Below, piece by piece: positions 1-58,994 of a stretch of 58,994 bases of DNA (its first letter is position 1; every line of letters begins with the position of its first letter). The stretch is taken from the IMG/VR virus record IMGVR_UViG_3300033151_000226, positions 1-58,994 of that record, one strand, 5' to 3'. Made by a program: the position numbers and the translations under genes. The notes below the pieces were generated by a model. It saw only the letters and a program-made list of their open reading frames with translations. It searched no databases and was not told the origin of the DNA. This DNA is from a virus (Duplodnaviria; Caudoviricetes).

Positions 1-114
1 TGGTGGATAGTCCCTGCCGCATTTAGGGCAATGTATGTCTCTCTCTTTCATGTTGTTCCCCAAGGGTAAGGCGGGGCACACGGCCCCGCCTGTGGTGGTT
101 ACGGCTGGCCTTTT
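1..114. repeat. Terminal direct repeat, left copy (circular overlap)
   Basis: 1-114 is identical to 58881-58994. Confidence 0.97.
69..91 (-). terminator. GC-rich hairpin downstream of ORF 99..806
   Basis: AGGCGGGGC-acacg-GCCCCGCCT perfect 9-bp stem; no clear U-tract. Confidence 0.4.
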
Positions 115-806
115 ACAAACTTCGGCCGTACTACGTTCGGACCATCTTCGGCACGTCTGCGGGCCACATCAACCGCTTGCTCCATGCGCCGGATAACTTC
201 GGCCGGGAGTTTCTCGGTCATGTATTCTTTCCATAACGGGCTTCGCGGATCCACGGCATTACCCCAACCTACCGAACGGTGGTTCGCTACAGTCTCTCCG
301 CGATAGTTCGGGTTCCTGCGCCACTGGCGGCTATACCGCTGCTCTGGTGTAAGTTTGCTGGCTGTTTCGTCGGTGCGCGTGTTGTAGTAACGATCACCGT
401 ACATGGCAAACTGCCCAAGCCGCAAGCCAACATTCATAAGCCAAAGCCCCTGATTGTTTGCATACACGTTCTTGCGCTGCTCGTCGGTATATTCCCGATC
501 AGGCACAAGGATCCCGTAATGCTGGCTTGACTTCTCCGCGGCTTCCACCTGGAACACGTCGCCATTGGCCAGCCAGTCGGCAACATACTCGTCGATCGCA
601 CGGATCCTCACACAACCATACTGATCGTGATCGCTGAAACCGTACTCGTCATACGTCACAATGTTGAGATCCGTCACATTCTGGTTTCCGCTATTCAGGA
701 TCAAGATCCCGTCTACGCGCACAGTACCAGTAATGCGGCCGTCGTCGATCAGTGGTGATATCGCGTCAATGATATCGCCGGTTGAAATATCTTGTAGTTC
801 ATTCAT
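99..806 (-). CDS. Hypothetical protein, 235 aa
   Basis: Long ORF with GGAG upstream, in line with the leftward operon; no family recognised. Confidence 0.8.
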   Translation of the reverse strand: MNELQDISTGDIIDAISPLIDDGRITGTVRVDGILILNSGNQNVTDLNIVTYDEYGFSDHDQYGCVRIRAIDEYVADWLANGDVFQVEAAEKSSQHYGILVPDREYTDEQRKNVYANNQGLWLMNVGLRLGQFAMYGDRYYNTRTDETASKLTPEQRYSRQWRRNPNYRGETVANHRSVGWGNAVDPRSPLWKEYMTEKLPAEVIRRMEQAVDVARRRAEDGPNVVRPKFVKGQP

Positions 807-837
807 ACCTTTTACTCCATGGTTAAAAACAATTTAC

Positions 838-1680
838 TTACTTACACCGATATACCGGCACCTTGGTATCCTTGGCGATCTGCTTCTCGATATCGCCTGA
901 CATTGCTTCCAGGGCGTCACCAAGGCGATAAAACCGATAACCAAGTAATACAGGATCCCCGTCGGCCTTCGGTGCTTCGATGATGATATCAGCCGTAAGC
1001 GTGATTTCGGGCCCACCATAAAACGGCGTTACCTTGATCGTCATTTGCTTTGGCAACGTCAACACCTTCTCGGTGGTGCTGTCGCTGCGGGTTGATACCT
1101 TCATGCTGTAAAGCAGCTCGGCACTGCCAGTATGCAGATCCTTACTTTCTTTGAACTCGCCCTTTGATAACAGTCGCAAGGTTTGGATGATCTCAAGAAG
1201 CTCCGCGCCTGCGGGATCCATCACGTCTGCCATGTTCTGATAAATGAAATCGGCAAACGTGGACTGCTTGAACTTGCGATCGTTCCCATTGAACCACGCC
1301 ACCCAGGACGGTGTAGATCTCGTCTGGTAGATAGCAAGGTGCTGGCCCCACATGGGCCCGTTCTTTGCTGCGCCGTCACCTGGGGCTTGGTGGTAGTCGA
1401 TAATTGCGCGGGCCGTGAGATCCCCGTTACCAACCGCGTCAAACTTGATGATCGTGGATTGCTCTTTGTGCTTGAGCAAATACGCCACAAACGATTTGAG
1501 ACACGTAATCTGGATAGTCTCTTTAACGCGCCGGGGCTTCTCCATACAATCGTCAAGCTGCGTGGTGGTCCAGCCTGGGGGAGCCACAACTACCGGCACT
1601 TCGTTTACATGGCCCAGGTACGGCGTTTCTGCCGCCATGATAGGAAACTCTTGTCCTGGGTTCTGTGTTGTTTCATTCAT
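838..1680 (-). CDS. DUF2303 (YfdQ-like) phage protein
   Basis: 'SFVAYL..HK', 'AIIDYH', 'WGQHLA', 'KFKQSTFADFI', 'P.GAELLEI' pattern; preceded by its usual small partner gene. Confidence 0.8.
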   Translation of the reverse strand: MNETTQNPGQEFPIMAAETPYLGHVNEVPVVVAPPGWTTTQLDDCMEKPRRVKETIQITCLKSFVAYLLKHKEQSTIIKFDAVGNGDLTARAIIDYHQAPGDGAAKNGPMWGQHLAIYQTRSTPSWVAWFNGNDRKFKQSTFADFIYQNMADVMDPAGAELLEIIQTLRLLSKGEFKESKDLHTGSAELLYSMKVSTRSDSTTEKVLTLPKQMTIKVTPFYGGPEITLTADIIIEAPKADGDPVLLGYRFYRLGDALEAMSGDIEKQIAKDTKVPVYRCK

Positions 1681-2027
1681 TGGTTGTCGGTCCCTGTAGC
1701 TTCGGTGGCTTCAACAACACTTGCCATACCGGGCAGTGGGTTTTGAAGCGGATCGTCGCGCTGTAGGCCGTCGTCGCTATTCACGTAGAACAGTGAGATT
1801 GGCCGTCCGAGCTCTGGCGCCGTTCCCTTGATTGACGGCCGGATCTCCATTTGCTCGTTGCTTGGGCCGCGGGGGTGAAGGGCCAGTGTTACCGAGATCT
1901 TCCCGGCCCGGCCCGTTTTGCGAATAGCCGAGATCACTTCCGTCATTTCGTCGGTGAGCTCGTCAATCAGCCTTCCGTTATTGATTTCCCTCAATACATG
2001 ATCGAAGGGTCTGATAGCTTGTTTCAT
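1677..2027 (-). CDS. YfdP-like partner of DUF2303
   Basis: 'F..VLREINNG....EL......V..AIRKTGRAGKISVTL' and 'LFYVNSDDGLQRDDP.Q'; ATGA overlap with the next gene. Confidence 0.7.
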   Translation of the reverse strand: MKQAIRPFDHVLREINNGRLIDELTDEMTEVISAIRKTGRAGKISVTLALHPRGPSNEQMEIRPSIKGTAPELGRPISLFYVNSDDGLQRDDPLQNPLPGMASVVEATEATGTDNQ

Positions 2028-2374
2028 TGGTTTTCCTCTTTAAGTGCGGTGAGTATTTCTTCCCTCTTTGGAATGTCGGGAAGGTCGAGAATCGTTTGTG
2101 TAAAGGTTGTAGCCATGTGCATGGCGGTGGCATGGTTGCGCTTGAGTAGCGCGTCCATGGTTGGATCCCCGGTATCAGTTCGCATGATCCGAGCGCGTAA
2201 ATCTGTCAACATCTGGACGGGGCAACCGTAGTATGCAACGGCCCGCCATGGGCCCAGGCCGCTACCGTCTTTCTTTATTGCCCGCTGGTAAATGATCCAG
2301 TTCAGGGTATTGATTCCATAGGCCCAGTGATCGCCCAGGGTGAACATGGGTTTTACGTCGTATTTTTTGCTCAC
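2024..2374 (-). CDS. Hypothetical protein
   Basis: GTG start overlapping upstream stop (GTGA); ORF track starts at 2407. Confidence 0.65.
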   Translation of the reverse strand: MSKKYDVKPMFTLGDHWAYGINTLNWIIYQRAIKKDGSGLGPWRAVAYYGCPVQMLTDLRARIMRTDTGDPTMDALLKRNHATAMHMATTFTQTILDLPDIPKREEILTALKEENQ

Positions 2375-2568
2375 TTTCTTTTCCTGTGCTGGTTGACATT
2401 GGGGCAAGTGGCAAAATGTGAAATATGCCGTTTCGGATCGAAATCAGTCTCGTCCTCGTCGTCTACAGAATCAGGATCCACTGGGATATTTTTTCCTGCC
2501 GTTGTTTTCATCCATATAATGTAAGCGTGACAGGACCGGCATTGAGGAAGGTTTAATTTTCCGTTCAT
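2371..2568 (-). CDS. Small Zn-binding phage protein
   Basis: 'CRSC...IIW..T..GK..PVD ... SHFATCP' motif; ATGA-coupled start at 2568. Confidence 0.7.
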   Translation of the reverse strand: MNGKLNLPQCRSCHAYIIWMKTTAGKNIPVDPDSVDDEDETDFDPKRHISHFATCPNVNQHRKRK

Positions 2569-2672
2569 TGCTTGTACGCCATGAGTGCTTGAAGGAATCC
2601 GGCAATGTAGGCCCAAAAGACAATCATGGTAACGAACATTGCTTCGATTAACAGGTGTATGAATTTTTTCAC
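2565..2672 (-). CDS. 35-aa hydrophobic membrane peptide (not in ORF track)
   Basis: GTG-KKFIHLLIEAMFVTMIVFWAYIAGFLQALMAYKQ; AAGGA upstream; coupled to both neighbours by 4-nt overlaps. Confidence 0.6.
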   Translation of the reverse strand: MKKFIHLLIEAMFVTMIVFWAYIAGFLQALMAYKQ

Positions 2673-3124: not shown

Positions 3125-3574
3125 TCAGAAAGGTATGTCGTCGTCCTCGAAGTCACTGGCGTTCTGGACCGGCTGCGCTGGCTTGTTTGCCTGCTGGTTC
3201 CTAAACCCGCCCTGGCCCTGCTGCTGGCCGCCGTCGCCCCGGCTACCAAGCATCTGCATATCCTTCGCTACGATCTCAGTGGTATAACGATCAGCTCCGC
3301 TTTTATCCTGCCACTTGCGGGTCTGCAACTTGCCCTCGATGTAAACCTGGGATCCTTTACGCAAGTATTCGCCTATGATCTCGGCCAACCGCTGAAACGC
3401 TACGATCCGGTGCCATTCGGTCTTGGTTACTTTTTCCCCGGTCTGCTTGTCGTTCCAGCTTTCCGACGTGGCCACACTGATATTGGCAATGGCCGCCCCG
3501 GAAGCGGTGTACTTCATTTCCGGGTCTTGACCCAGGTTGCCTACGATAATTACTTTGTTTACGCCTTTACTCAT
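3125..3574 (-). CDS. ssb: Single-stranded DNA-binding protein
   Basis: '[15 protein letters not shown]', 'TEWHRIV', '[11 protein letters not shown]', C-terminal DDDIPF. Confidence 0.98.
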
Positions 3575-3831
3575 ATTTCTCTTACTCCGTTTCTTGATTC
3601 TATCCAGTTGATTATTTCTTTAACATCACCGACCACCCTGTACCCGGTTTCTTCGTCACCAACGCCCTCGGTTGTTGTAACCCAACACTCATCTTCACGA
3701 TCATACGAAGGATAAATGGCAACGATTTTATCCCTGTCGATGTAAAGTGGCTTGGTAGTAAAACGGGGGCCATCCAGCCCGGTACCATCAGTCACAACCA
3801 TTTCAAACTCAACAAACCACTTATCTTTCAT
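3571..3831 (-). CDS. Hypothetical protein (MKDKWFVEF...)
   Basis: ATGA overlaps at both ends; the longer track ORF runs back into the exonuclease gene. Confidence 0.65.
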
Positions 3832-11146: not shown

Positions 11147-11575
11147 ATGTATTTTGAAGAACCCAAGCACATTAGAACCGTGTGCCCGTATTGCGGCCAC
11201 ATCGAAGAAGCCCGGCATACCGGCGATAAATATAGTGGGGTTGCTGTCTGCGGAAAATGCGTTAGTGAGTATGCGTACAAGATCAGTTTGGAAGTAGTCT
11301 CTACATCTTCAAGGGTCGAGTGGCTTCCAACGCACAGCCTAACTCCCAAGACGAAGTTGGTAGTCTCGGATATACCAAAAACACCAATAAAAGGCATGTT
11401 CTCTCTCAGGGCCGTAAACACGCTTCTTAAAAATGAGGTAACAACACTGGAAATACTATTAACCTACTCGGAAGTCGGGCTCTTGAAAATGCCGCTTATG
11501 GGTAAGAAAGTTCTTACAGAAATAAAAGACGCACTCGCCATGAAAGACTTGTCTCTAAGATCAAACTCGGCTTAG
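11147..11575 (+). CDS. Zn-ribbon fused to an RNA polymerase alpha-CTD-like domain
   Basis: CPYC/CGKC at the N-terminus; 'SLRAVNTLLKNEVTTLEILLTYSEVGLLKMPLMGKKVLTEIKDALAMKDLSL' follows the RpoA CTD pattern. Confidence 0.8.
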   Translation: MYFEEPKHIRTVCPYCGHIEEARHTGDKYSGVAVCGKCVSEYAYKISLEVVSTSSRVEWLPTHSLTPKTKLVVSDIPKTPIKGMFSLRAVNTLLKNEVTTLEILLTYSEVGLLKMPLMGKKVLTEIKDALAMKDLSLRSNSA

Positions 11576-14500
11576 TTACTTCCTACCAAACATCGGTGAG
11601 AAGTATTTGTAAGCCTTCGCGTCCTGGGCGTTCCGTCGCTCAATGATCTTATTGATCTTTTCGCGCTTCGCCTTCGGGTCCATCTTCGGATCTCTGTAGA
11701 TCCGGTCAATGGCCTTCCGCATCTTAGAGCGATCGCGGGCCCACTTGCCAATACGCTTGCGGGCTTTCAGCTGTTTGCGGTTATCTTCATCCATCAATCC
11801 CTCAATGCTCTCCCGATCGCCCTGCTTCTCATACGCCTTAACTGTGCCATACAGCTCGGTTACTTCCCGGTGGATCTCGTACATTTCAGTACCGTACCGG
11901 GTATTCCAGGCCGGGCCGGATCCACGATAGAAGCCGCCCAGGACTGGCAGCTGTCGCGCTGTCATTGCTGGTACTGGCGCCCGGCCCATGATCTCGCGTG
12001 TAATCACGTCGGCCGCCATGAGTGAGTAGCTTCCCAAGGTACCCATGTAACCACGTACCAAGAACTCGCCTTGTTTCGGTGATAGTCCCATGAGCTCAAG
12101 GAATGGGCCCATTGCTACCATCGTTTCGCTTGTCGAAGCGTTGTACCTGGACCGCTTCATCTTGTTGCGATCGGCCATACCTTCAATCGGCCGGCCAGTG
12201 AACATAGATTCATTTGCGAACACTTCCATGGCAGGCCGCATGATCTGAGGAATGGGGTTAGCCGCCATGGTATCCATAAGGGCATGGCCCATACGCTCGA
12301 ACAGTTTTTCGGGGGTGTCCTTGCCAATGGCGGCCCGGTACATTCTTTCCGGGATCGTGCCGTACAAGACACCCACTTCAAACGGTTTCGGGATCCGTGT
12401 ATGGAACTTAGTGCCCGGCATTAAGTGCCAGTACGCATCCTTATCCCATTCTTCCAGTGCTTCGTAATCCTCGTCACCGGAGTTAAGAGCTGCCAGTGCG
12501 GTACTGGCCAACGCGATCCACATGCCGCGCATGGCGATCTCTTTGGCAATCAGGCCCGGTACCGGCACCGCACCGCTGCGGCCGAGTTTGTATAAGCCTT
12601 GTAACCTGGCATTGAAGAACGGGAGCATATCGTTAAACATTTGGATCCACGCCCAGGATCCGTGCATAGAGAAGTCCATCAGATCCTTGGCTTCAAAGAT
12701 CGCTTGCCTACGTTCCTTGCCATTCTTGGTGGCAGCTTCGTAAACAGCTTCACGGTTAGCGTTCTCAACCGCGTCACCAACACGCCGCCAGCGATCCCAC
12801 ACGCCAGCTGTCAGATCAATGACGGTATCAAGGTGCTCTTGTATGTATTCATTGTCGTAACCCTTCAACCGGAGCGCGACACGGATGCTCTTGCGGGATG
12901 CGTCCGGGTCGGTGCCGTTGATGTAGCCGCCCTGGAAGGATCCACCGGCAAACATCATATCGAGCATACCGCCTTCTTCTTTGGCCGACTTATACAGGCC
13001 GTGCACACTGTCGACGATCGGTATGAAGTGATCCTCGTTGATAACCCAGGCGTGCAATGTATCTCGCGTGAAGTTTCGCGCCATGAAGCCGGGCTCTGAC
13101 GTAATCATGGTGGTGAGTAGCGTCTTGGCCGCACGCATTGGTAGGAACAGGCCGCGCAAAGATTCGATATTCACGTTGGTAAGCGACTTGAGCAACATCG
13201 GATCATTGACCCGGTAATACTCAGGCTTGCCGTCGCGCATGACCTTGACTACTTCCTTCCCGGCTGGTTCGGCCATGGCCCATAGTTTCGCTATTCCGTC
13301 GAATACTCCGAGCTGGCCCATCATATCGAGTATTTCTTCGGGGATCCCATCTTGCAGCATCATTTTCTTAATGCCGCCCCTGGGTATCAGTTTCGGATTG
13401 AACTTAATGCCTTCCTTGTCGAGAGCTCCGGTGCCGTCGAGTGCGTCAACTGTCTCCAGGACGGCCAGATTCTTCATAGACGCTTCAATCAGGTGATTGA
13501 AGTTCATAACGATGTTACCAAGTGGGTCAGATAGTGCGCTCTCGCCGCCGACAAGCCTGCGGATCCCGCTTGTCTGGTGTGATAGGCCCATTCCCTTGCC
13601 AAACTTGATCCCGCCACGCTGCCGGGCGTTATCTACGCGGTAAAAGGGTATCCAATCGGCTTTATCCCACACTGGCCGGGTTTCTTCGTCGATCAGGCCA
13701 GCACGTTCCGCGAGATCAAGGATCCTGCCTTTGAACTCGGCAAAGTCCTCGGCCACTTTTTCGTAGAGATCCTTACGCTGTACTGTCACGCCGTTGCGTT
13801 CCAGGGTGCCATTGGCCAGTTCAAGCCCGGCCGCGATATCGGTATCGTCGAAGTTGCGCTCTTTTTCTTCTTCCATCAAACGCTCGGCCCGGCGTGCGAT
13901 CATCCAGCCAAGGAAATCATCAAGCTCTTGTTTGACTGGCTCGAACACGTCCAGGAGCCCGCGGCTGCCCGGTACCTTGCTGATAACTCCACCACGCCAC
14001 TCAGGAGCGCCGTGTAGCAGGATCCCGCGCATTACACTCGCGGATCCCGTTGATAGCCTTGCTGCAATGTAACCATCCATTGCCGGGGTTTCTGTTTCGT
14101 CCAGGTAGTCCCGGTACGCACGCTTGATCCCGTAGAATTTATCGAACAGGCCGTGCTGTATCGCGTCTGAAAGGTTGCGCTTGGATTCGCGCCACTGGAT
14201 ATCCATGTAACCGCGGAAGGTATCAATCAAAGATCTGCGCTGGACCTTCATGCCAGCTTTCTTCATAAACTCTTTTTGTTCTTCGGTGTACTTGCGGTTG
14301 AAGGCCGGTTCCTGGCTGGCCAGCTTGTTGCGTAACGCAATCTGTCTGTGCAGTCTCTCTCTGGCCTTTTCGGACACGGCCCTTGCCGATTCCATTTCGG
14401 CTTCCAGTCGATCAACGGCCGGATCCTTGATGATCTCCTGCATCAGCTTGACCTGGCGTAATGGTTCGACGGTCGTTCCATTCTCCCAGTCGGCTTCCAA

Positions 14501-44663: not shown

Positions 44664-45037
44664 GCTTGGCCCCTCGTTGACGAAAGCACTATTGTTAGAA
44701 TTGCGTCCGGTCCGAAGCTCTCAAGCTCAACCAACTCGATACCGCGTAGCACCCCGGAGAATGTAGCGATCGCTGATTTGTTGTTATCCAGGGTAAGCAC
44801 CTGGCCGATATCTACCGAGTCCAGTATCACGGATCCTATTGTGTCCGGGATGATCCTCGCATTGACGGATCCACTAACAGGCACCGGGGAAGTAATTGTC
44901 AGCTGGTGTTGCGTCATGTGCCGGTGGCCGTCGGTCAGTCGTCGCATGGTGGCCGAGTGCCACACTTGGTTAAGAAACAGTACCGTCGTTGATACGTTGC
45001 CGTCTGTAAGAAAGTCGCCACTCGGTTTCTCAGACAT
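44660..45037 (-). CDS. Hypothetical protein
   Basis: TAATG-coupled start; track ORF begins at 45061. Confidence 0.6.
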   Translation of the reverse strand: MSEKPSGDFLTDGNVSTTVLFLNQVWHSATMRRLTDGHRHMTQHQLTITSPVPVSGSVNARIIPDTIGSVILDSVDIGQVLTLDNNKSAIATFSGVLRGIELVELESFGPDAILTIVLSSTRGQA

Positions 45038-45381
45038 TAGCACTGATCCCGGCGTATGCACTCGATCGTCTTTTCATTCTTCTTGATCTGTTTGTTTATG
45101 AAATCAATTTGTGATTTCGTAAGGCCGCCACTTAACAGCTGGAAATCATAATCGGTATTCCGCTGTTCCAGATCAGCAATCCGCGTGTTCTTTTCCTTCG
45201 TGGCCTGGGTAGCAACGTGCTGATCCCGCCACTCGGCCGCTTCCGCGTCGAACTGGATAAGGCCATAGCCGGTAATGATGGAAGCAAGCATCCCGAACAC
45301 AAGTACAAGAGCACCGACGATAACCGTCACTGCCCGCGCCTTCTTCTCGCACTGCTCCCACCACTCCTTAACCATGGCCAT
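45037..45381 (-). CDS. Single-TM plus coiled-coil membrane protein
   Basis: 'AVTVIVGALVLVFGMLASIITGYGLI'; AAGGA upstream. Confidence 0.65.
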   Translation of the reverse strand: MAMVKEWWEQCEKKARAVTVIVGALVLVFGMLASIITGYGLIQFDAEAAEWRDQHVATQATKEKNTRIADLEQRNTDYDFQLLSGGLTKSQIDFINKQIKKNEKTIECIRRDQC

Positions 45382-45394
45382 ATTCCTTCTGGAT

Positions 45395-46075
45395 TTACCG
45401 CGAAACGGTACAGCTGAGTTTCGTTTTATTCCCGGCACTTGCGATCTCGGCCATGGCAAACTCATTGTCACCACTACCCAGGTCGATCGTACCAATGAAG
45501 TCAGCTGTCTTGCTGGCTGCGACAAGCCACGTTACGCCGTCCTCGGCTCTGACCAGAATGTTGACGGTTGCACCATCCCAACCAATACTCTTGCGAACAA
45601 CGGATATGCCCGATATGTCACCATCGAAGTCCAGATCGGCCCTAATATCAATATCAGTACCGGCGCCAGCAGTAATTTCCTCGATGTAAACACCATCAGC
45701 CGCACGATCAGTGCCTTCCTGGTCGCCAACAACCGGAGTTACGTTACCAGCAGTCTGACCCGTTATAGCGAAAGTAACTTCGTACACTTCACCATCCACC
45801 AATGCAACGGCCGGGGTCTGAGTGAGATCCGAATCGCCGGTCTGTGAAGCATCACTTGACGCAAGATCATTGGCAATCGTCCAGCCTGTGCCTTTGATCC
45901 AGTCCGTATCAGTGGCGAAAAGGCCATTGAGGACATAATTCACGCTATCAGTTATTACACCCCATACCTTTACGTGCAATTTACCTTCGTGCACTTCGAT
46001 AGTTCGTGCTCCAGCACCATCAACAATCTGGTCTTGAAGCAACCACTCAAAAAACTTCTGTCCAATCCTCGGCAT
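45395..46075 (-). CDS. Putative decoration protein with carbohydrate-binding-like insert
   Basis: GAGGA RBS; 'NG.F.TDTDW.KG.GW.I' module. Confidence 0.65.
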   Translation of the reverse strand: MPRIGQKFFEWLLQDQIVDGAGARTIEVHEGKLHVKVWGVITDSVNYVLNGLFATDTDWIKGTGWTIANDLASSDASQTGDSDLTQTPAVALVDGEVYEVTFAITGQTAGNVTPVVGDQEGTDRAADGVYIEEITAGAGTDIDIRADLDFDGDISGISVVRKSIGWDGATVNILVRAEDGVTWLVAASKTADFIGTIDLGSGDNEFAMAEIASAGNKTKLSCTVSR

Positions 46076-46096
46076 ATCATTATCCTCTCGTAGTTA

Positions 46097-46495
46097 CTAT
46101 TTCAATGCCGCCAGCTCTTGAAGCCGAACAGACAACTTGGCCTGCATCGTTGAAGGCTTCATTGCCTTTGACAGTTTGATATCGAGCTGCTTGCCAAACT
46201 TGACGAGCTCGTCCTTGTCCTCGGTGGACATAATCGCAGTCAAGAGATCCGAGCTTCCTGGGGTCTTGGCTGCGGGTTCATCAGCTGCCGGGGCTTCCAC
46301 CATGGGAGCTGCTTCTTTTGCGGCTACAGATACCTTCGCGGGCTCCGGGCCAGCTGCCGTTGCACATGGAACGAAGTACGGTTCCCCGTTTTCGTCTTTG
46401 CGTGCAAGTTTCGCTTCTGTGGCCACCATAACGCGGCCATTTCGTAAGTTAATCAGGTAGGGCAATGCGCCCTTGGGTGTTTTATTGCGTGACAT
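46097..46495 (-). CDS. Hypothetical capsid-adjacent protein
   Basis: A/P-rich linker and 'KDELVKFGKQLDIKL' helical C-terminus. Confidence 0.7.
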   Translation of the reverse strand: MSRNKTPKGALPYLINLRNGRVMVATEAKLARKDENGEPYFVPCATAAGPEPAKVSVAAKEAAPMVEAPAADEPAAKTPGSSDLLTAIMSTEDKDELVKFGKQLDIKLSKAMKPSTMQAKLSVRLQELAALK

Positions 46496-46529
46496 GCGTA
46501 GATCCTCTCATTGAATAAAACACCGATAT

Positions 46530-46554
46530 AAGAGAAAGCCCCCCGAAGGGGGCT
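46530..46554 (-). terminator. Intrinsic terminator after the capsid gene
   Basis: AGCCCCC-TTCG-GGGGGCT followed by TTCTCTT on the minus strand. Confidence 0.7.
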
Positions 46555-46570
46555 AACTCAGACTGGTCGC

Positions 46571-47491
46571 TTAGGTTTGTGCTGCGTACAACACGCCCAT
46601 AGCTTCTGGCTTGACTACCTTGTAGCCGTACACGTTCAGGCCGCGGAAAAGCGTACCGAAGGTGGTCGGGGAAGGCAGGCTTTCGTTCTTCACGAACTGA
46701 CCGGCAAAGGTCAAAGCCGTCTTGTGACCAAACAGGCAGCTGGTAACGTTCGTGCCGCCGTCGTTAGTTACCTCAAGCAAATTGCTGCGGTAAATCTCGT
46801 AGCGGTCGATCATACCAATACGGCCGTTGCGGAGGATGGAAGTGCCGTCGCCCGCGAGACTTGCGTCTTGCAGATCGGACTTCTTAATCATTCCGCACAT
46901 CCAGACTGGGAGTACCATCCAACGATCCGATTCAGGAACGTCTTGCTCATCGAGCACGGAACCAGTGTCAACGATGTAATCGAGAACATTGGTCTTGGAT
47001 ACAACTTCCCAGGCACCGGCCGCGCCAAGGTCAAACGATGCGGTGCGTACACCGGCCGTAGCCCCTGCGTTGCTGGCGTGAACATCGGCGTCGATATCAG
47101 CAAGGATTTCCGTATCAACGGTAATCTTCATCTGCTCGGCCGCGTCACTGGTCCAATCTTCGGTCATGCCGTAATCCGCTTGCTTGACGTCAACATCATC
47201 AGCTACGAACGCCCAATACTTGCCCTGGTCGATATTCAGGGAGATCTTGGTCGGAGTTGGCTGCTCGTAAGTGAGGGCCAATCCCTTCGTGTAGTTGTTG
47301 ATGGTGATATCCGGCGTGGTGCGGATCTCTACCTTATCACCGTAATCTGAGATTTCACCCTCGTAATCGGTGTTACTGATTGCCGGAATTACGCTGGCTT
47401 CATAAAACTTTACCAACAATTTACCGGACCATATTGTAGGGATTGTGATCCCTGACAGTTGGGGTGTTGCCCCGTCTACTGGAAAAGGCAT
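46571..47491 (-). CDS. Major capsid protein
   Basis: 'IPTIWSGKL..KFY', 'N.DYEGEI...GD.V.I', 'LDEQDVP...RW', 'RNG.IG.IDR', 'RGL.VYG.KV..PE'; follows the scaffold gene. Confidence 0.92.
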   Translation of the reverse strand: MPFPVDGATPQLSGITIPTIWSGKLLVKFYEASVIPAISNTDYEGEISDYGDKVEIRTTPDITINNYTKGLALTYEQPTPTKISLNIDQGKYWAFVADDVDVKQADYGMTEDWTSDAAEQMKITVDTEILADIDADVHASNAGATAGVRTASFDLGAAGAWEVVSKTNVLDYIVDTGSVLDEQDVPESDRWMVLPVWMCGMIKKSDLQDASLAGDGTSILRNGRIGMIDRYEIYRSNLLEVTNDGGTNVTSCLFGHKTALTFAGQFVKNESLPSPTTFGTLFRGLNVYGYKVVKPEAMGVLYAAQT

Positions 47492-47568
47492 TATCCTTAT
47501 CCTCCATGGTTGTAAATGACAATAGAGCCGTCACGCCAACACATTGAAGGTGCCTTCAACCGATAGAG

Positions 47569-48528
47569 TTACTTGCCTAAATTCACCCTATCGCTATTAA
47601 CAGCATCAATGTACAGGCGTTCCATACGCTCTGCTTCTTTGGTGTTGCCTTTGAACTTGCCGTTTGGATTGGCCCACTCCTTGTAAAACGCCTGAATGGT
47701 CGATTCGTTATATCGAACATCAGATGTATCTACAGGTTTGGCATTCCCACCGCCGTCTGCGGGCACCACATGACGTTGTTTTTCGGTATCAGGCTTTGCT
47801 CGTTCTTTGAACGCGGTAAGCTGGTTGATGATTGGCTTCGGATCTCCACGCTGAACCGCACGATCAACAATCTCTTGTCGTGTCACTCCCAGGTCCGGGA
47901 GTTCTTCATTCAAGAAGTTGATAAAGGCCGTGGTCGTGTCGATCTGTTCCCAGTCGGAGTGTGCCGCTTTGATCGAGTCAAAGAACACGTCGCGTTTGTC
48001 CGTCTGGTCACGTTTCGTCAGATCCTCAACCTTGTTGGTTAAGCTGTCGATTTTGTCCTGGGCCTTCTTATCCCGGCTCCGCATGAAGTCAGTAAACTCA
48101 GTACCGAACATTTCTTCGATATCAGCAGGAATCTCGTCCGTGCCTGATTCGGAATTGTTGGTAGTGGTTCCAGCTGCGATATCGTCTGGTTTGACGGTCT
48201 TCAACTGTCTAACTTCTTCTTGGAGCCTGGGGATCTCGGCGTTGTACTTGCCTTGAAGCGTACTGTATTGATGCTTGAGCGCGTTATTTTGCTCCTGCAA
48301 CAACTTGTACTCTTTCTCCCAGTCGAGCTTTGTATCATCATCTGGCTTGGCTGCTTCGGCCGGTTTCCCGGTTTCTTCTACCTCGCCAGCAGGCTTCCCA
48401 GTTTCCTCGATATCCGGGTTCGGGGTAATAATCCCACCATCCGGGTCAAGTCCCTGTTCTTCCTGTAAAGCCTTTATCGCGTCGTCAGACCGTTGGCCTG
48501 CTTCAATTACCTGTTTAGGTAAACCCAT
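47569..48528 (-). CDS. Scaffolding protein
   Basis: 'MGLP.QV', 'Y..LQGKYNAE.PRL', acidic coiled coil; AGGAG RBS. Confidence 0.8.
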   Translation of the reverse strand: MGLPKQVIEAGQRSDDAIKALQEEQGLDPDGGIITPNPDIEETGKPAGEVEETGKPAEAAKPDDDTKLDWEKEYKLLQEQNNALKHQYSTLQGKYNAEIPRLQEEVRQLKTVKPDDIAAGTTTNNSESGTDEIPADIEEMFGTEFTDFMRSRDKKAQDKIDSLTNKVEDLTKRDQTDKRDVFFDSIKAAHSDWEQIDTTTAFINFLNEELPDLGVTRQEIVDRAVQRGDPKPIINQLTAFKERAKPDTEKQRHVVPADGGGNAKPVDTSDVRYNESTIQAFYKEWANPNGKFKGNTKEAERMERLYIDAVNSDRVNLGK

Positions 48529-48739
48529 AACAATGTCTCTCCTGGCCGGTCGCTTGCGCGGTATCGGCACGTCATTTACGGAGTCGGTTAGTTCCGGTGT
48601 TCCGCTGGTAAAAACCTACTGCCTTCCATATCTTCATAGCAGTAGGTCCGAGTCACCAGCTGCGCGGCCGGTAGTATTCGGATCTACTGAGAAGGTAGAA
48701 AGTAGTAGGGCGTTTTGCTCCCTGGACGGAGATCCAGGG

Positions 48740-48991
48740 TTACAAACTTTGGCTCATGCGATTCACATGGCCTGACCGTTGTCGGTGTGCTTCTCGCGCA
48801 CCATCAACGGTTTTAATCAATTCAATAAATGCTTGTGCCCGGCCTTGGTGCCGAGCCGGGTTATCTTCTTCAATACACATTGCAATCGCTTCGGCCTGTT
48901 GCTTACGAACCAGATCCATGAATATCTCAAAGTCTTGGTTCTGCGACAACCGGGCGATCGCCATAAGTATCTTTTCGTCTTGGATCCTCAC
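48740..48991 (-). CDS. Small portal-adjacent protein (Bbp19-like)
   Basis: 'QGRAQ...EL' motif; position between portal and scaffold. Confidence 0.7.
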   Translation of the reverse strand: MRIQDEKILMAIARLSQNQDFEIFMDLVRKQQAEAIAMCIEEDNPARHQGRAQAFIELIKTVDGAREAHRQRSGHVNRMSQSL

Positions 48992-52930: not shown

Positions 52931-53496
52931 TACTCTGCGGCGTCCACGGTTACGCCCTGTGGAAGCTGCCTACCATCCGGGGGGCCATAGTTCATCGTGA
53001 TATGAACACCGCCCGGCGTTGTCGTTGAAGTGTCGTTATACAGGCCCAGGTGCTTGAATAGCATATCCAAGGATGCACGCTTATCAACGAGCCGGATCTT
53101 GTGTACGTGTTCTACTTCCCGATTGCCGTCCTCGTCTGTCTCGCCAGTGGCCCGGACCACAACTTCAACTGACTGCACGGCTGCGGCAATAGCGTCCGGT
53201 AATGAACGGATATCAATCAGCTGGCCTGCTTCGGTGAACAACTCCCGGATATCAGCGAAGCTCATGTACTGGCATTGTCGAAGCACGCTCTCGGCTGTAA
53301 CGCCTGTCTCCTTGGCCCTTGCATCCATGGCCTTTTTAAGAGCCACCTGGATTACAAGTTTTGACAAGTTCTGTGGACCAATGCGATTAGCTGTCTTTTT
53401 ACTATACCCGGCCCTTATCGCCGCCTGAGTTGCACACAGATCCACAAGGTACTCTTGAACGAAGGCCGCTTGTTTGGGTGTTAGTTTGCTATTCAT
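52930..53496 (-). CDS. terS: Terminase small subunit
   Basis: 'LTPKQAAFVQEYLVD..ATQAAIRAGYS.KTA', 'L..L.KHLG'. Confidence 0.97.
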   Translation of the reverse strand: MNSKLTPKQAAFVQEYLVDLCATQAAIRAGYSKKTANRIGPQNLSKLVIQVALKKAMDARAKETGVTAESVLRQCQYMSFADIRELFTEAGQLIDIRSLPDAIAAAVQSVEVVVRATGETDEDGNREVEHVHKIRLVDKRASLDMLFKHLGLYNDTSTTTPGGVHITMNYGPPDGRQLPQGVTVDAAE

Positions 53497-54716
53497 GGCG
53501 CGGCTATAACAACCGAAGCATACCCGTCATAGCCTGACGTTCCGAACAGTGGGCTAAATGGCCCAACATTACCATCCGCGGATAACAACCTGTACCCCAT
53601 CATCATGCTTGTCCAGTTTGGCACGTTTATTACTGAATTCGCTAAATCCAATCCAGTTACGCCAGCACTCATATCCAATGGTGGGTTCTTGAAGGTGCTA
53701 AAAGCCATTCCGACATAGACGCCACCATTCACGCCTGTCCGGGCCGGGATTGGTGGTGCCGACGAGCTTCCCGCATCAGCAACCAAGGAGGTGTTCGTGA
53801 ACGATGCGGCTATCGCAGACAGTCCGTTACCACTCCGGGACAGTGTAAATGTGTATGTTTCTGGCTCGTCACTTGATGCAACCTTAGTAAGAATGTAGCA
53901 CCTTGATTCAGCCAATCCTGTAGCGCGGCTTACGTCTGCCGTAAATGGATCATGGGCACTTACAATACAGTTTCTTGTCACTATGCCAATGACAATCATA
54001 TCGCCCTCGTTGGTGGGCGGCATATTTATAACCGCAGTCAACCCGTTGGTTACTAATGATATTACACTACCAATATAGAACCCCTTGCTGGTCTGCGGCC
54101 TGCCTGGATCGTAAGGGCCGCTACCAACAAGACTTTTGAAACTGTACTGCAACCGATTATGGATATTCATTCCAACGGTGTCGAGCCAACCAGGGGGGCC
54201 GTCTACAGGCCACTCCCAAAGCGGCCACTCAACCTCATACCTGTCTCTTTGTTCGCGGTAGTACAGATTGTCACCGCGCAAATAAACAATATGAATGTCG
54301 GATTGGCTAACCAATGCAAAACGCTTATCGTCCATGCAGCATCGGGGATTAACCACGTCTGCTGCCATTTGTTGATGAACGTACCCTGGGAGGGTCGGAT
54401 CATACCAATAATAATAGGCTTGCTCATTGACCACATAAACAACAAAAGGATCCATGTTTTGATCGAAGGCTATACTTGCTTCGGTTATTCCAGCAAGCGT
54501 GAATAGTGTTGTTGGTGCACCTGTCGTTTGGGGGGTTACGATTATATCATCGTTACTGTAGCTCAGGATCCACTCTTGTACTTGTAGCCCTTGTGACGGG
54601 TCATTCAGGGCCACTCCACCCAGTTCGTAATCTTTCACGCCGGATCTTTCCTTTCCATCAGGAAAAAGAAAGTCCCCGGATATTACTGTACTGGATAATT
54701 TCGGTGACGGCATCAT
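53493..54716 (-). CDS. Tail/fibre-type structural protein
   Basis: 'DYE.GG..LNDPSQGL', 'AFDQNM.P', 'YWYD', 'R.QRDRY'. Confidence 0.65.
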   Translation of the reverse strand: MMPSPKLSSTVISGDFLFPDGKERSGVKDYELGGVALNDPSQGLQVQEWILSYSNDDIIVTPQTTGAPTTLFTLAGITEASIAFDQNMDPFVVYVVNEQAYYYWYDPTLPGYVHQQMAADVVNPRCCMDDKRFALVSQSDIHIVYLRGDNLYYREQRDRYEVEWPLWEWPVDGPPGWLDTVGMNIHNRLQYSFKSLVGSGPYDPGRPQTSKGFYIGSVISLVTNGLTAVINMPPTNEGDMIVIGIVTRNCIVSAHDPFTADVSRATGLAESRCYILTKVASSDEPETYTFTLSRSGNGLSAIAASFTNTSLVADAGSSSAPPIPARTGVNGGVYVGMAFSTFKNPPLDMSAGVTGLDLANSVINVPNWTSMMMGYRLLSADGNVGPFSPLFGTSGYDGYASVVIAAP

Positions 54717-55711
54717 GGCGGTGTATATCTATCCCACGTAATCCGTCCCTTGAATGTGAAGTTCGTAGTGTTGTTGTGCAAAACACCCTTACCTGTGCCT
54801 TGATTGATTAAGCTAATCTGCCAGTTCCCAGAAGGAGTATCCCATCTGAGGGCTCTTATCCCTTCTGGACCAATGTTTTCGTGGGCATTTATGTCAAAAA
54901 ACAATGTATTCTCATTATAGTGATTACCATTCACATAGGGTAAATAGGTCGGGAAAGAACCAACTCCTTCGTCCTGAAGCGTCGGGGATCCAGTAACCAG
55001 TCCTAAATCCCCCGAATACACATAAAAACCCACGCACCGCCCAAGCGGACCAGTAGAGCCCGCTACTGATAGATACCCAACAACCGCGGGCCGAATCACC
55101 CAATCAAACGTCTGGCTGTCGATAACGATAGTGCCAGTTACGTCTGTTAATACTGGCTGGTAAAACCGGAACTCATAGGTAACGTCCAAAATCTCATCAA
55201 ACAACACGGTGACTGTAATTGGATCTCCGTTACCATCCTTAATCAGAGATCGCGTTGTCAGATCTCCTGTTCCAAGAGCCATACCTGCCCCAACTTCTGC
55301 CAGAATACCCTCTGCGATCCCAATCCCGAACCTGTATGTTCTCCGAGAAAACTTATAGTACGGATCACCTGCAGAACCATCACCGCCAACACCCCTTTCT
55401 TCAAATTGAAGGGCACCAGCTTCCGCTACGTGAGCAACCAAAGCCGCATCGCCAACCGCAGGCACCGGCACCGCACCAGTACCAACACGACAATAGCCAC
55501 TGTACTGTGGCGGGAGTGACGTTGTGGCGCCACTATTACCGAAATTATCCATCCCTGTATCAGTTATTAAATTATTCTGCCACGGCGCTACCGTTCGCCT
55601 GGTTCCGTCCGGCCTGGTAATCCCCATCTTAAAGAGTCCAGCTACGCCTACATGGGCGTTAAGCATTGGCTTTCTTTTTGGTGCTGCTTTCATTTCTGTT
55701 TTCCTATACAT
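54713..55711 (-). CDS. Tail-associated structural protein
   Basis: 'NLITD.G', 'C.VGTG...P...D.AL', 'G.L.EVG', 'R.LIKD..G.P....V...E.LDV.YE'. Confidence 0.65.
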   Translation of the reverse strand: MYRKTEMKAAPKRKPMLNAHVGVAGLFKMGITRPDGTRRTVAPWQNNLITDTGMDNFGNSGATTSLPPQYSGYCRVGTGAVPVPAVGDAALVAHVAEAGALQFEERGVGGDGSAGDPYYKFSRRTYRFGIGIAEGILAEVGAGMALGTGDLTTRSLIKDGNGDPITVTVLFDEILDVTYEFRFYQPVLTDVTGTIVIDSQTFDWVIRPAVVGYLSVAGSTGPLGRCVGFYVYSGDLGLVTGSPTLQDEGVGSFPTYLPYVNGNHYNENTLFFDINAHENIGPEGIRALRWDTPSGNWQISLINQGTGKGVLHNNTTNFTFKGRITWDRYTPP

Positions 55712-56204: not shown

Positions 56205-56354
56205 TTATCCCGTAATGTTTTTTACAAATCGTTTCAGTGCTGCCCTTGCACGTAAACAGCCTTCGCAGGGCTCAATCAGCTTGCGGATCCTCTCAATGGG
56301 GCTCCTACGTTGAATAGTTTTGGGCGGGGTGGGGGTGAACCTTCTTCTATTCAA
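56205..56354 (-). CDS. 49-aa basic peptide with CxxC (not in ORF track)
   Basis: TTG start overlapping upstream TGA; 'PCEGCLRARAALK'. Confidence 0.45.
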   Translation of the reverse strand: MNRRRFTPTPPKTIQRRSPIERIRKLIEPCEGCLRARAALKRFVKNITG

Positions 56355-57204: not shown

Positions 57205-57207
57205 AAT

Positions 57208-57480: not shown

Positions 57481-57566
57481 TTGCGGGATCTCCGGCGTTG
57501 TTTGCGGGCCTGTGCGTGCTTAGAAACCCTTTTGCGTGGGTTGGATCCTTCACCGTCAGTTGGCAT
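57477..57566 (-). CDS. 29-aa R/K-rich peptide (not in ORF track)
   Basis: AAGGAG RBS; MPTDGEGSNPRKRVSKHAQARKQRRRSRK; ATGA overlap. Confidence 0.55.
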   Translation of the reverse strand: MPTDGEGSNPRKRVSKHAQARKQRRRSRK

Positions 57567-57578
57567 AACATCTCTCCT

Positions 57579-58046
57579 TCATCCCATTACCCACTGGCCC
57601 TGCCAGTCAGTGTTTGCGATCGCTTCCGCGAGAGCCCTTGCGGGCCTGGGTGTTTGGTGCCACCACCGGGAATCTTTCATTTCCATTACCCAACCATCCA
57701 CGTCACCGATCATTACAGCTTCGCGCATACGAAGGAACCTGGACAGCTTGCGTATCCCCAGTTGGAAACCCATGTGAATTAACACTTCCTGCTCAACACC
57801 ATGCAAGATATCAAAACGGCCAGCATATAGAGCTTGGCACCCGGCTATTGCTTCGAGTAGATCCGATCGCACTTCAACCAGGGCGGCTACTTTGGTGACT
57901 GCTGGTGTATCAGCTGTTACTCGCTCCCCGGCCCATATCGTTGAACCGAAGCCTATGGTCCACACGCCAAGGGTGTCGAGATATGCCGCTGGCCTAAAAC
58001 CCTCGAACATACATTGGCGGCTTATCAGGTGCGATACAGTGAACAT
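57579..58046 (-). CDS. Endolysin, T4-lysozyme-like muramidase (GH24)
   Basis: 'FEG.....Y.DTLG.WTIGFG' E-X8-D-X5-T triad; 'M.FQLG', 'DSRW..QTP'. Confidence 0.92.
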   Translation of the reverse strand: MFTVSHLISRQCMFEGFRPAAYLDTLGVWTIGFGSTIWAGERVTADTPAVTKVAALVEVRSDLLEAIAGCQALYAGRFDILHGVEQEVLIHMGFQLGIRKLSRFLRMREAVMIGDVDGWVMEMKDSRWWHQTPRPARALAEAIANTDWQGQWVMG

Positions 58047-58057
58047 AATTTTTATCC

Positions 58058-58092
58058 AAAAAAAACCCCGGCAAGGGGGGGAGCCGGGGTTT
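58058..58092 (-). terminator. Intrinsic terminator upstream of the late operon
   Basis: AAACCCCGGC-loop-GCCGGGG followed by T8 on the minus strand. Confidence 0.8.
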
Positions 58093-58151
58093 GAGTATTA
58101 CACCACGAACGGTAAATGATGTAATGGCACTTAATATCAGGGATCTATTTC

Positions 58152-58192
58152 AAGATACACTGATTCTCAGGTATTGGTGCAAGTCGTGTCAA
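58152..58192 (-). promoter_or_regulatory. Candidate late promoter (pR'-like)
   Basis: TTGACA (58192-58187) N18 GAGAAT (58168-58163), then -10-like TATCTT (58157-58152). Confidence 0.5.
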
Positions 58193-58198
58193 ATAATT

Positions 58199-58381
58199 TT
58201 ACCGGCCACCCCCGCCAATGTTTATAAATGGATCCTCGTTTAGATTCCGCGTAGTAGGCCAGCTCACTTCCCCGGTTGATTCATCCTTGTACTGGCCGTT
58301 CGGTAGTCTCCTGGTTATCGGATAGGTTTGTTTCTGCTCGGTGCTTTTCTCTTTATCGTCCTTCACTTTCTGTTCTCCCAT
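58199..58381 (-). CDS. Hypothetical protein (start may be GTG at 58366)
   Basis: Last ORF of the leftward operon; GGAG before the GTG. Confidence 0.55.
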   Translation of the reverse strand: MGEQKVKDDKEKSTEQKQTYPITRRLPNGQYKDESTGEVSWPTTRNLNEDPFINIGGGGR

Positions 58382-58464
58382 ATTGAGTTAAGTATCCAGC
58401 CAAGGCCCACAAGGAGCCCGGCCACTATTGCTAACAATGAATAGATCCACCAGTCGTCAGTCAT
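58363..58464 (-). CDS. 33-aa single-TM peptide (not in ORF track)
   Basis: MTDDWWIYSLLAIVAGLLVGLGWILNSIWENRK; fills the gap between neighbours. Confidence 0.55.
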   Translation of the reverse strand: MTDDWWIYSLLAIVAGLLVGLGWILNSIWENRK

Positions 58465-58467
58465 GCT

Positions 58468-58719
58468 TCACCACCTTTGAGCTTCTTGCTCTGCTGCCAG
58501 TTCGCTCTCCAGATCGTCTATACGGCTTTCCAACTCAACAATGCGCCGGGCCAAGGCCACTTCATAAGGAAGGTTCTTGTCTACCACGATCGGCGTATTG
58601 AACTGCAAGATTTCGTGATCCCCTTCGGGCCCAGGTATTCCGATCCCAACTTCTGTAATGGCGCGATCTGAGTTTGGTGCCATGCTTCGTGCGAATTTAT
58701 ACTTCATGGAGCTGGCCAC
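58468..58719 (-). CDS. Hypothetical protein with coiled-coil C-terminus
   Basis: 'RIVELESRIDDLESEL'. Confidence 0.6.
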   Translation of the reverse strand: MASSMKYKFARSMAPNSDRAITEVGIGIPGPEGDHEILQFNTPIVVDKNLPYEVALARRIVELESRIDDLESELAAEQEAQRW

Positions 58720-58961
58720 GCAAGCAACCGATTGAGCTCACTATTCACTGTGATTTCGTGACTTCTTCGATCGTGGTTAGCCTGGGAGCCGTTTCGAGCC
58801 CGGCACTTCGCCCGGCAAAAGCTACACGACTTGGCTTGCTCGGTAAATCCGCGGGCCTTCATATCTTTGACAAACTCCGCTGGTGGATAGTCCCTGCCGC
58901 ATTTAGGGCAATGTATGTCTCTCTCTTTCATGTTGTTCCCCAAGGGTAAGGCGGGGCACAC
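58704..58961 (-). CDS. Small Zn-finger protein
   Basis: CPKC ... CSFC; likely start MKERD at 58931. Confidence 0.6.
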   Translation of the reverse strand: MCPALPLGNNMKERDIHCPKCGRDYPPAEFVKDMKARGFTEQAKSCSFCRAKCRARNGSQANHDRRSHEITVNSELNRLLAWPAP

Positions 58962-58994
58962 GGCCCCGCCTGTGGTGGTTACGGCTGGCCTTTT
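58881..58994. repeat. Terminal direct repeat, right copy
   Basis: Identical to 1-114. Confidence 0.97.

Follow-up and report, generated by a model that had tools for sequence, protein, structure and literature searches.

The hexanucleotide GGATCC is strongly over-represented in IMG/VR virus record IMGVR_UViG_3300033151_000226, the whole of which (58,994 bp, positions 1–58994; hereafter, the window) was analyzed and which, judging from family searches and terminal repeats, is a complete podophage genome. The window holds 114 copies of GGATCC, 249 of RGATCY (R, purine; Y, pyrimidine), 584 of GATC, 540 of GGCC, 515 of CCGG, and none of CTAG. The GGATCC excess is real, acts on double-stranded DNA, and is specific to the complete 6-bp palindrome. 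Rather than being an isolated oddity, GGATCC is the top of a wider class of raised palindromes. Phage-restriction theory predicts the loss of palindromes, never their gain; in this genome, most palindromic hexamers are erased and the survivors are amplified. A layered explanation, favored tentatively at a probability of roughly 40%, would combine a host-like background, a broad purge of words, and a host-linked positive pressure on the palindromes that were spared.

The GGATCC Excess

At 1.93 copies per kb, GGATCC is approximately 7.2- to 7.4-fold in excess of the 15.4 copies expected from base composition (guanine-plus-cytosine (GC) content, 52.4%). A preliminary description of this DNA had reported the over-representation as genome-wide, and its observations are borne out. 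All nine copies that it listed in the first 3 kb are present (positions 247, 509, 602, 953, 1214, 2163, 2474, 2755, and 2884), as is the density that it saw at 41–45 kb (10 copies) and in a giant gene (38 copies in 18.3 kb). The excess also persists under the two kinds of control that it had proposed, namely a codon-preserving shuffle and a Markov model. In 300 runs of a synonymous shuffle that preserves the proteins and codon usage of each gene, 29.5 ± 4.7 copies are obtained with a maximum of 44, such that the observed count is 3.9-fold higher (z = 18). The maximal-order Markov model, which conditions on GGATC and GATCC and is the most conservative Markov model, expects 78.8 copies (z = 6.3). 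Against the same shuffle, GATC (347 expected, z = 19), RGATCY (90 expected, z = 21), GGCC (389 expected, z = 10.6), and CCGG (423 expected, z = 7) are also raised, and among the other members of RGATCY the enrichment amounts to 2.7-fold for AGATCC, 2.15-fold for GGATCT, and 1.8-fold for AGATCT. Of note, the degenerate words CCNGG (504 vs 352, z = 12) and CANTG (344 vs 244, z = 9) are over-represented by this measure as well.

GGATCC is found throughout the genome at 0–7 copies per 2-kb bin and without preference for a flanking base. Its spacing has a coefficient of variation of 1.14, compared with 0.99 ± 0.09 for random placement, and the longest gap is 4115 bp. The three reading frames harbor 37, 39, and 37 copies, with one further copy outside genes, and codon choice is context-dependent in all of them. 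GGA-TCC, one of 24 possible spellings of Gly-Ser, is used in 37 of the 106 such pairs (35%), where 3.1 would be expected. Similarly, GAT is the aspartate codon in 75 of 88 Asp-Pro pairs, compared with 54% overall, and ATC is the isoleucine codon in 39 of 42 xGG-Ile-Cxx triplets, compared with 51% overall. This context dependence, together with the equal use of the frames, indicates an effect at the level of DNA rather than of codons or protein. GGATCC and CGATCG are raised but their hybrids, GGATCG and CGATCC, are not, and the odds ratio (GGATCC × CGATCG)/(GGATCG × CGATCC) reaches 12.9 in the window, compared with 1.2 in the null.

Purged Words

Words were regarded as purged when they fell below 0.15 of the synonymous-shuffle expectation in a second shuffle set; 39 of the 64 palindromic hexamers do so. 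The remark in the preliminary description that phages normally avoid palindromes applies here with full force, as 29 of the 64 are absent and a further 10 have one or two copies. For hexamers with an expectation of at least 8, the fraction below 0.15-fold is 30 of 50 for palindromes and 102 of 3389 for non-palindromes (Fisher p = 3 × 10−31). CTAG (63 expected by the synonymous shuffle) and GCCTC/GAGGC (80 and 37 expected) are missing altogether, and dozens of asymmetric hexamers, among them CTCTTC, GGTCTC, GAAGAC, CCCAGC, CTGAAG, and GGCGGA, are present at zero or one copy on both strands. Interrupted palindromes are lost as well, with observed and expected counts of 1 and 27 for GAANNNNTTC, 1 and 29 for GCCNNNNNGGC, 0 and 19 for CCANNNNNTGG, 0 and 18 for GGTNACC, and 0 and 17 for CAGNNNCTG. 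The purged words are presumably recognition sites of well-known type II enzymes, and their loss would be due to the restriction systems of a diverse host pool. Restriction-type purging of this breadth is unusual.

TGATCA is represented by a single copy, compared with 16 expected. BclI-type cleavage of this word is blocked by Dam methylation; thus, its near absence argues against blanket adenine methylation of GATC in this genome.

Some words are retained in one orientation only: CGAGG (0 copies) vs CCTCG (67), CAACAG (0) vs CTGTTG (33), GCCAGG (0) vs CCTGGC (28), CGGCGG (0) vs CCGCCG (22), CGGCAG (0) vs CTGCCG (23), and CAGCGG (0) vs CCGCTG (25). The synonymous shuffle expects 9–38 copies of the missing orientation (CGAGG, CAACAG, GCCAGG, CGGCGG, CGGCAG, and GCAGCC). 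Phage T7 escapes the type III enzyme EcoP15I through single-orientation sites, and by analogy these words may reflect the evasion of type III systems.

Spared Palindromes and the Effect of the Purge

The 17 spared palindromic hexamers sum to 1.94-fold of their expectation in the window. Against the synonymous shuffle, GGATCC (3.87-fold) is followed by GAGCTC (2.72), CAGCTG (2.54), CGGCCG (2.30), GATATC (2.13), GTGCAC (2.06), CGATCG (2.05), AGATCT (1.80), and TGGCCA (1.76). If the comparison is confined to words that are expected at least 8 times and reach at least 0.5 of that expectation, 7 of 15 palindromes lie above twofold, compared with 49 of 3009 non-palindromes (Fisher p = 3 × 10−9).

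The excess could be nothing but a by-product of the purge, in that an exceptionally broad loss of words from a GATC-rich background would leave GGATCC and its like to fill passively as safe spellings. Such a purge would include degenerate, interrupted, or longer motifs outside the modeled nulls. A capped null was therefore constructed from synonymous rearrangements that keep every purged 4- to 6-mer at or below its observed count (171 or 360 words, 12 chains each). It yields 42.2 or 48.4 copies of GGATCC (standard deviation 4.3), compared with 114 observed, and lifts the expected GATC count from 347 to 472–485, suggesting that the purge by itself generates roughly half of the GATC excess. AGATCT is no longer significant under these caps. 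The earlier claim of an enriched RGATCY thus holds for the set (249 vs 90) but not uniformly for its members.

In a second, more demanding null, GATC, GGCC, CCGG, AGCT, and CATG were additionally held at their observed counts (caps plus floors). The expectation for GGATCC becomes 54.9 ± 6.4 (maximum 62), and the observed count still exceeds it 2.1-fold (z = 9.3). CGATCG, CGGCCG, TGGCCA, and AGATCT are accounted for by this null, which is still exceeded by CAGCTG (1.9-fold, z = 8), GTGCAC (2.4-fold), GAGCTC (1.5-fold), and GATATC (1.4-fold). The hybrids GGATCG and CGATCC are found in 22 and 19 copies, half of the 43 and 44 expected, and an AGCT-core odds ratio, analogous to the GATC-core one, is 8.3 in the window and 1.6 in the null.

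A passive origin is thus favored by the stepwise rise in expected GGATCC with each constraint (29.5, 42–48, and 54.9), by the four palindromes that lose significance once caps and floors are applied, and by the many purged interrupted sites that lay outside the caps. It is harder to reconcile with the z-scores that GGATCC and CAGCTG retain in the richest null, with an odds ratio roughly ten times that of the null, and with the concentration of a third of all Gly-Ser pairs in one spelling. The GGATCC excess is, accordingly, partly a by-product of the purge, with an approximately twofold, palindrome-specific remainder. Should the excess prove to be a by-product, the drop from an apparent 3.9-fold to 2.1-fold would be a caution that simple codon shuffles exaggerate enrichment where a genome has been heavily purged.

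Sister Phages and Relatives

The majority of 80 IMG/VR loci found by means of the capsid lack GGATCC altogether. Four loci (L003, L007, L002, and L012) exhibit a 2.3- to 4-fold excess, and CTAG is absent from them. L003 and L002 are parts of record G001 and of G003, the latter being a near copy of part of G001. G001 (L082–L087, 1–103145) contains two related phage genomes head to tail, A of approximately 60 kb and B of approximately 43 kb, and is rated 100% complete in IMG/VR. The homologous blocks of A and B are 74–90% identical (76.8% overall), and the record probably reflects either a join made in assembly or a tandem pair.

Both genomes share the two-class usage of palindromes, purged or raised, which is common to the sister phages. 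By the synonymous shuffle, 13 palindromes are enriched at z ≥ 3 in G001A and 11 in G001B, GGATCC being among them (30 vs 17 and 41 vs 21 copies, respectively), while 11 and 17 are purged in one shuffle run and 12 and 21 in a second. The assignment of individual palindromes differs between the phages. CAGCTG occurs 61 times in the window and not at all in G001A or G001B; conversely, GCCGGC has 5 copies in the window, 59 in G001A, and 64 in G001B. GCCGGC and TCCGGA, which are purged in the window, are raised approximately 2.1- to 2.6-fold in G001A and G001B by the synonymous shuffle and 3.1- to 3.7-fold by a null based on trinucleotide halves. The summed ratio of the spared palindromes is 1.94 in the window, 1.41 in G001A, 1.52 in G001B, 1.55 in L003, and 1.31 in L007. 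In contrast, six capsid-family relatives with 11–26 purged palindromes have spared ones at only 0.88–1.20 of expectation, an absence of inflation that speaks against a by-product of purging.

No close relative of the window was found. The best metagenome matches to its capsid (63–68%) are on contigs of 2.7–5.2 kb with 1, 0, and 0 copies of GGATCC, and these contigs correspond to a region from which GGATCC is missing in the window as well. At tblastn E ≤ 10−5, the overlap between the window and G001 is limited to the capsid, the portal, a scaffold-like protein, and portions of the giant protein. Contig C174 of a metagenome-assembled genome (MAG), G004, which encodes the giant-protein relative discussed below, has no GGATCC excess.

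Phage Enzymes and Repair

The preliminary description had proposed that the sites are selected because the phage's own enzymes modify them, and had drawn a parallel to the DpdA of phage CAjan. The whole records of the window, G001, G002, and G003 were searched in six frames, with positive controls detected. No N6_N4 methylase (PF01555), D12/Dam (PF02086), or C5 (PF00145) family is found in the window or in G001–G003. TGT/DpdA (PF01702) is found in none of the four records, whereas the control was detected in 14 of 14 genomes; the CAjan parallel therefore finds no footing. The sole match to N6_Mtase (PF02384) is an N6-adenine DNA methylase domain (N6_Mtase/Eco57I type; 22013–22570, minus strand) in the giant protein of the window. 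Among solved structures, the catalytic domain of M.TaqI comes closest to it, and only the catalytic core matches, such that the target specificity is not inferable.

The giant protein is encoded at 11576–29878 on the minus strand, a polyvalent virion-type protein of 6100 residues whose gene has the same GGATCC density as elsewhere. It harbors an inorganic pyrophosphatase (InPase) domain (residues 910–1041; 26756–27151, minus strand), the methylase domain, an SNF2-type helicase region (residues approximately 3154–3715; 18734–20419, minus strand), and large polyvalent protein associated domain 38 (LPD38; 11939–12475, minus strand). The presence of InPase, N6_Mtase/Eco57I, SNF2/Helicase_C, and LPD38 in a single reading frame marks it as a polyvalent protein. 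No counterpart of the methylase domain was found in G001–G003. The two polyvalent proteins of G001 (2988 and 3117 residues) have only the InPase and C-terminal parts in common with the window, and the sister-phage relatives in general, at approximately 3000–3900 residues, keep these parts alone. The C-terminal part, which includes LPD38, is shared with G001, G002, G003, and contig C174 of G004, and a query with it gave no match in five control records.

Candidates for a phage-borne cause would be the methylase domain of the injected giant protein, placed as it is beside an SNF2 helicase, or an unrecognized modifier among the unannotated genes, approximately half of the window's genes being without a family match. 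The C-terminal part of the giant protein does accompany the excess in all of the enriched sisters. However, the two phages of G001 have the excess with no match to the methylase–helicase part or to five methylase families, contig C174 carries the giant protein without an excess, and the window and G001 have few proteins in common. CGGCCG and CCGCGG, moreover, are enriched yet contain no adenine. As no enzyme family was found, a phage-encoded cause is improbable, the unannotated genes notwithstanding, and the earlier proposal is not sustained.

The preliminary description had also considered methylation-linked repair. In such a scheme, Vsr-type repair acting with C5 methylation in the host would convert near-cognate words into GGATCC and GGCC, as Dcm and Vsr do for CCWGG (W, A or T). 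The absence of CTAG and the elevation of CCAG/CTGG and CCWGG are in keeping with it, as are the low levels of GGTC/GACC, the deamination neighbors of GGCC (0.59), and of GAATCC/GGATTC (0.51), although GGTC/GACC and GAATC-type words also belong to the purged restriction-type words. A deamination–repair drive should deplete transition neighbors. For the nine enriched hexamers, the one-letter neighbors stand at 1.08 of expectation for transitions (992/921) and 1.03 for transversions (1930/1875), a poor fit to a Vsr drive, and the words that arise from GGATCC by a transition at the outer C are raised 2.4-fold. With no Vsr family (PF03852) in the window or G001–G003 and no hexamer-level GGATCC excess in the candidate host chromosome, conversion of this kind is very unlikely.

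The HIP1-like (highly iterated palindrome 1) variant of the same proposal fares differently. The outer-position neighbors AGATCC and GGATCT are at 2.39-fold and the inner-position neighbors at 0.34- to 0.89-fold, as in HIP1, but neither periodicity nor a cognate methyltransferase was found in the phage. This outer-up, inner-down pattern is also expected from a raised tetramer core.

Host-Like Composition

Among the genomes with a capsid relative are several MAGs titled Desulfobacterium, Desulfobacula, Desulfobacteraceae, and Desulfosarcinaceae, and in their loci, as in the window, CTAG is absent and GGCC and CCGG are high. In the chromosome of the Desulfobacterium-labeled G004 (362 kb sampled), GATC is at 1.72, GGCC at 1.68, CCGG at 1.94, CTAG at 0.06, and CCWGG at approximately 2.9-fold. 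The corresponding zero-order ratios of the window are 2.59 for GATC, 1.95 for GGCC, 1.86 for CCGG, and 0 for CTAG. Given these levels in G004, the GGCC and CCGG excess and the CTAG loss of the window look like ordinary host-like composition, which would also explain a good part of the GATC excess. The twofold enrichment of GGCC noted earlier is correct for the whole genome; the first kb, where it had been noticed, has 8 copies compared with 4.8 expected. Of the original interpretation, the part that stands is that the complete palindrome is affected at the level of DNA; the Vsr and phage-enzyme parts are not supported, and GGCC is explained by composition.

Tetramer profiles, compared after first-order normalization, correlate at 0.77–0.80 between the window and the phage-like regions of three Desulfobacter-type MAGs, at 0.63 with the G004 chromosome, and at 0.36–0.62 with five other proteobacterial loci (Pseudomonas, Bradyrhizobium, Halomonas, Marinomonas, and Aliikangiella). 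Correlation of maximal-order Markov tetranucleotide z-scores proved too weak for ranking hosts, first-order normalization being better, and comparison of the tail fiber and internal virion protein with those of cultured phages was discarded as a host clue, identity being only approximately 30%. The phage is present, as contigs only, in three sequencing runs, two from sediment and one marine; no RNA run is listed among them, and no sequence variants were seen. Desulfobacterium-type bacteria are put forward as candidate hosts. In the G004 chromosome, the expectation that the host would show the same signature as the phage holds for the GATC, GGCC, CCGG, and CTAG background and fails for GGATCC as a hexamer.

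Among 301 genomes of the G004 phylum, the densest have approximately 1 GGATCC per kb (e.g., 4597 in 4.1 Mb), compared with 1.93 in the window. Some (G203, G277, G144, and others) reach 0.75–1.1 per kb, frequently combining high AGATCC with low CGATCG. Mirroring of a host's GGATCC usage was rejected on the basis of 19 sampled genomes (33–80 kb from G277, G203, G144, and G264, and 20 kb from each of the other 15), in which the excess follows from GATC and half-site usage, with odds ratios of 0.04–1.6.

A Proposed Layered Explanation

The first layer of this explanation is a tetranucleotide composition in which GATC, GGCC, and CCGG are abundant and CTAG is missing, as in the chromosome of the Desulfobacterium-labeled MAG. 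The second layer is the very broad loss of restriction-type words, which shifts part of the sequence toward the surviving words. Both are evident from the counts above, and so is the existence of a third layer, in which a clade-specific positive pressure would lift the unpurged palindromic hexamers, GGATCC most strongly (approximately twofold beyond the first two layers), followed by CAGCTG, GTGCAC, GAGCTC, and GATATC. As for the agent of this pressure, the reading of a 6-bp palindrome in full comes naturally to dimeric DNA enzymes alone, and the best guess is therefore that methyltransferases widespread in the host pool would methylate the spared palindromes. The sites would thereby be invisible to restriction and would be favored or maintained in a manner similar to HIP sites in cyanobacteria.

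Several observations weigh against this explanation. The link between the residual excess and host methylation of spared sites is pure conjecture. GGATCC in the G004 chromosome is at 0.95 of its trinucleotide-halves expectation, such that the candidate host type has no palindrome-level excess. The closest capsid relatives (55–60% identical) are spread over many phyla, and the capsid search of the 301 genomes of the G004 phylum gave nine matches, only two of them close and neither in a GGATCC-rich genome. HIP1-like quasi-periodic spacing of GGATCC was not found in the window, and no sign of a position-specific function was seen. Within the clade, the summed excess of spared palindromes tracks the extent of the purge, from 1.07 in contig C174 (order-2 Markov null) to the synonymous-shuffle values of 1.41 in G001A, 1.52 in G001B, and 1.94 in the window, which is the trend that a by-product would give. 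Even so, on the strength of the null models and the six uninflated relatives, a wholly passive origin is judged rather unlikely.

The final point concerns turnover. Aligned GGATCC sites are kept in 8 of 19 and 8 of 34 cases, compared with an all-hexamer baseline of 23.5% (G001A/G001B pair only), and this weak conservation suggests a pressure on the number of sites rather than on their position. Turnover is equally awkward for the idea that the words are functional sites of a phage process, such as the binding of a dimeric protein, recombination hot spots for Erf or YqaJ, or packaging. That idea would suit the specificity for the whole palindrome and the presence of Erf-like and YqaJ-like recombination proteins among the gene products. 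However, at least five different palindromes are raised, they differ between sister phages, and the sites are randomly spaced and lie inside genes in every frame, leaving little likelihood for such a function.

A bolder version of the layered explanation, possible but doubtful, is that some positive force reading complete 6-bp palindromes acts on a clade of sediment phages, each palindrome being erased or amplified according to local restriction. If so, host-methylated sites may confer an unrecognized benefit (e.g., as a "self" mark), or an unknown palindrome-directed repair or conversion may operate. The list of purged and spared words also records, in the manner of a fingerprint, which restriction and methylation activities are present in an uncultured sediment host pool, and it might help in pairing phages with their hosts.

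Genome and Gene Content

The record belongs to the IMG/VR class "direct terminal repeats", and an exact 114-bp direct repeat is found at 1–114 (plus strand) and 58881–58994. Genes occupy the minus strand for approximately 50 kb and the plus strand for approximately 7 kb. Family matches include the small and large terminase, an SU10-type portal, the capsid, GP4-type fiber and adaptor proteins, tail fibers, lysozyme, Erf-like and YqaJ-like recombination proteins, and a replication initiator. A search of the window for transfer RNA genes found none. Among cultured phages, the RHph_TM27A group of Rhizobium phages comes closest, with 47% identity in the capsid and 30% in the portal. Adjoining the giant gene, a small protein encoded at 11147–11575 (plus strand) matches the RNA polymerase alpha C-terminal domain (PF03118, E = 4 × 10−8).

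The longest GGATCC-free stretch (4115 bp, 44867–48982) spans the major capsid and scaffold-like genes, where the other enriched palindromes have normal density. In two tail-fiber genes (53493–55711), the enriched palindromes occur at 2–2.5 per kb, compared with approximately 8 elsewhere. Either region could be a recently exchanged module.

Comparison with Known Systems

Restriction-site avoidance in phages is said to have been described by Sharp in 1986 and by Rocha and coworkers in 2001. It is also treated by Rusinov et al. (2018, PMC6286503). The purge of palindromic, interrupted, and asymmetric words in the window is classical avoidance of this kind, although its extent (39 of 64) is unusual. 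The excess of spared palindromes, in contrast, is not predicted by restriction-site avoidance.

In Escherichia coli, the loss of CTAG with raised CCWGG, CCAG, and CTGG, reportedly recognized by Bhagwat and McClelland in 1992, is the classical very-short-patch signature of Dcm and Vsr. The window shares this signature. It differs in that no general depletion of transition neighbors surrounds the enriched hexamers and no Vsr gene was found in the phage.

DarB of phage P1 is said to offer a comparison for the giant protein. The 6100-residue protein is of the polyvalent type described for phages and conjugative elements (Iyer et al., 2017, PMC5512222), a likeness that bears on the giant gene and not on the word bias.

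HIP1 (GCGATCGC) is an 8-mer that is 15- to 300-fold over-represented and quasi-periodic in cyanobacteria, where alternate HIPs also occur (Elhai, 2015, PMC4390886; Xu et al., 2018, PMC5861425). Its one-letter variants are concentrated at the outer positions (Elhai, 2015). HIP1 and the GGATCC of the window are alike in that each is a GC-rich, GATC-based palindrome over-represented genome-wide and inside genes, with one-letter variants mainly at its ends. For each, an involvement of methyltransferases has been suggested. However, GGATCC is a 6-mer with a 2- to 7-fold excess and random spacing, and several palindromes are raised at once. In addition, HIP1 resides in cellular genomes that encode cognate methylases, whereas none is recognizable in the phage. 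The question of what drives a palindrome up genome-wide is more testable here, in a 59-kb genome with several palindromes that have opposite fates in sister phages.

In the literature searched, no report of an erased-or-amplified palindrome pattern was found, and on palindrome over-representation in phages, only a study of mycobacteriophages was found. In subcluster B3, GATC and GGATCC exceed expectation more than 4-fold genome-wide, an excess that, as the authors noted, runs counter to the usual avoidance of palindromes and that they left unexplained (Siranosian et al., 2015, F1000Res, PMC4841201). In the first 50 kb of phage Pipefish, GGATCC has 84 copies (4.9-fold), GATC is at 4.0-fold, the GATC-core odds ratio is 4.1, and 16 of 42 testable palindromic hexamers are purged. 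The B3 phages thus resemble the window in having GATC and GGATCC severalfold up genome-wide and, in Pipefish, the same contrast between palindromes and hybrids. Pipefish differs in being an unrelated siphovirus of an actinobacterial host with 67% GC. Its excess is limited to the GATC core (GGATCC, AGATCT, and TGATCA), it is enriched in TGATCA, which is purged in the window, and its spared class stands at 1.38-fold, compared with 1.94-fold in the window. GGATCC is nevertheless the top enriched palindrome in both of these unrelated, heavily purging phages, and the B3 excess is the closest precedent for that of the window. If the positive force is confirmed, a HIP-like process would operate in viruses and outside cyanobacteria, and it may be the same process as in the B3 mycobacteriophages.

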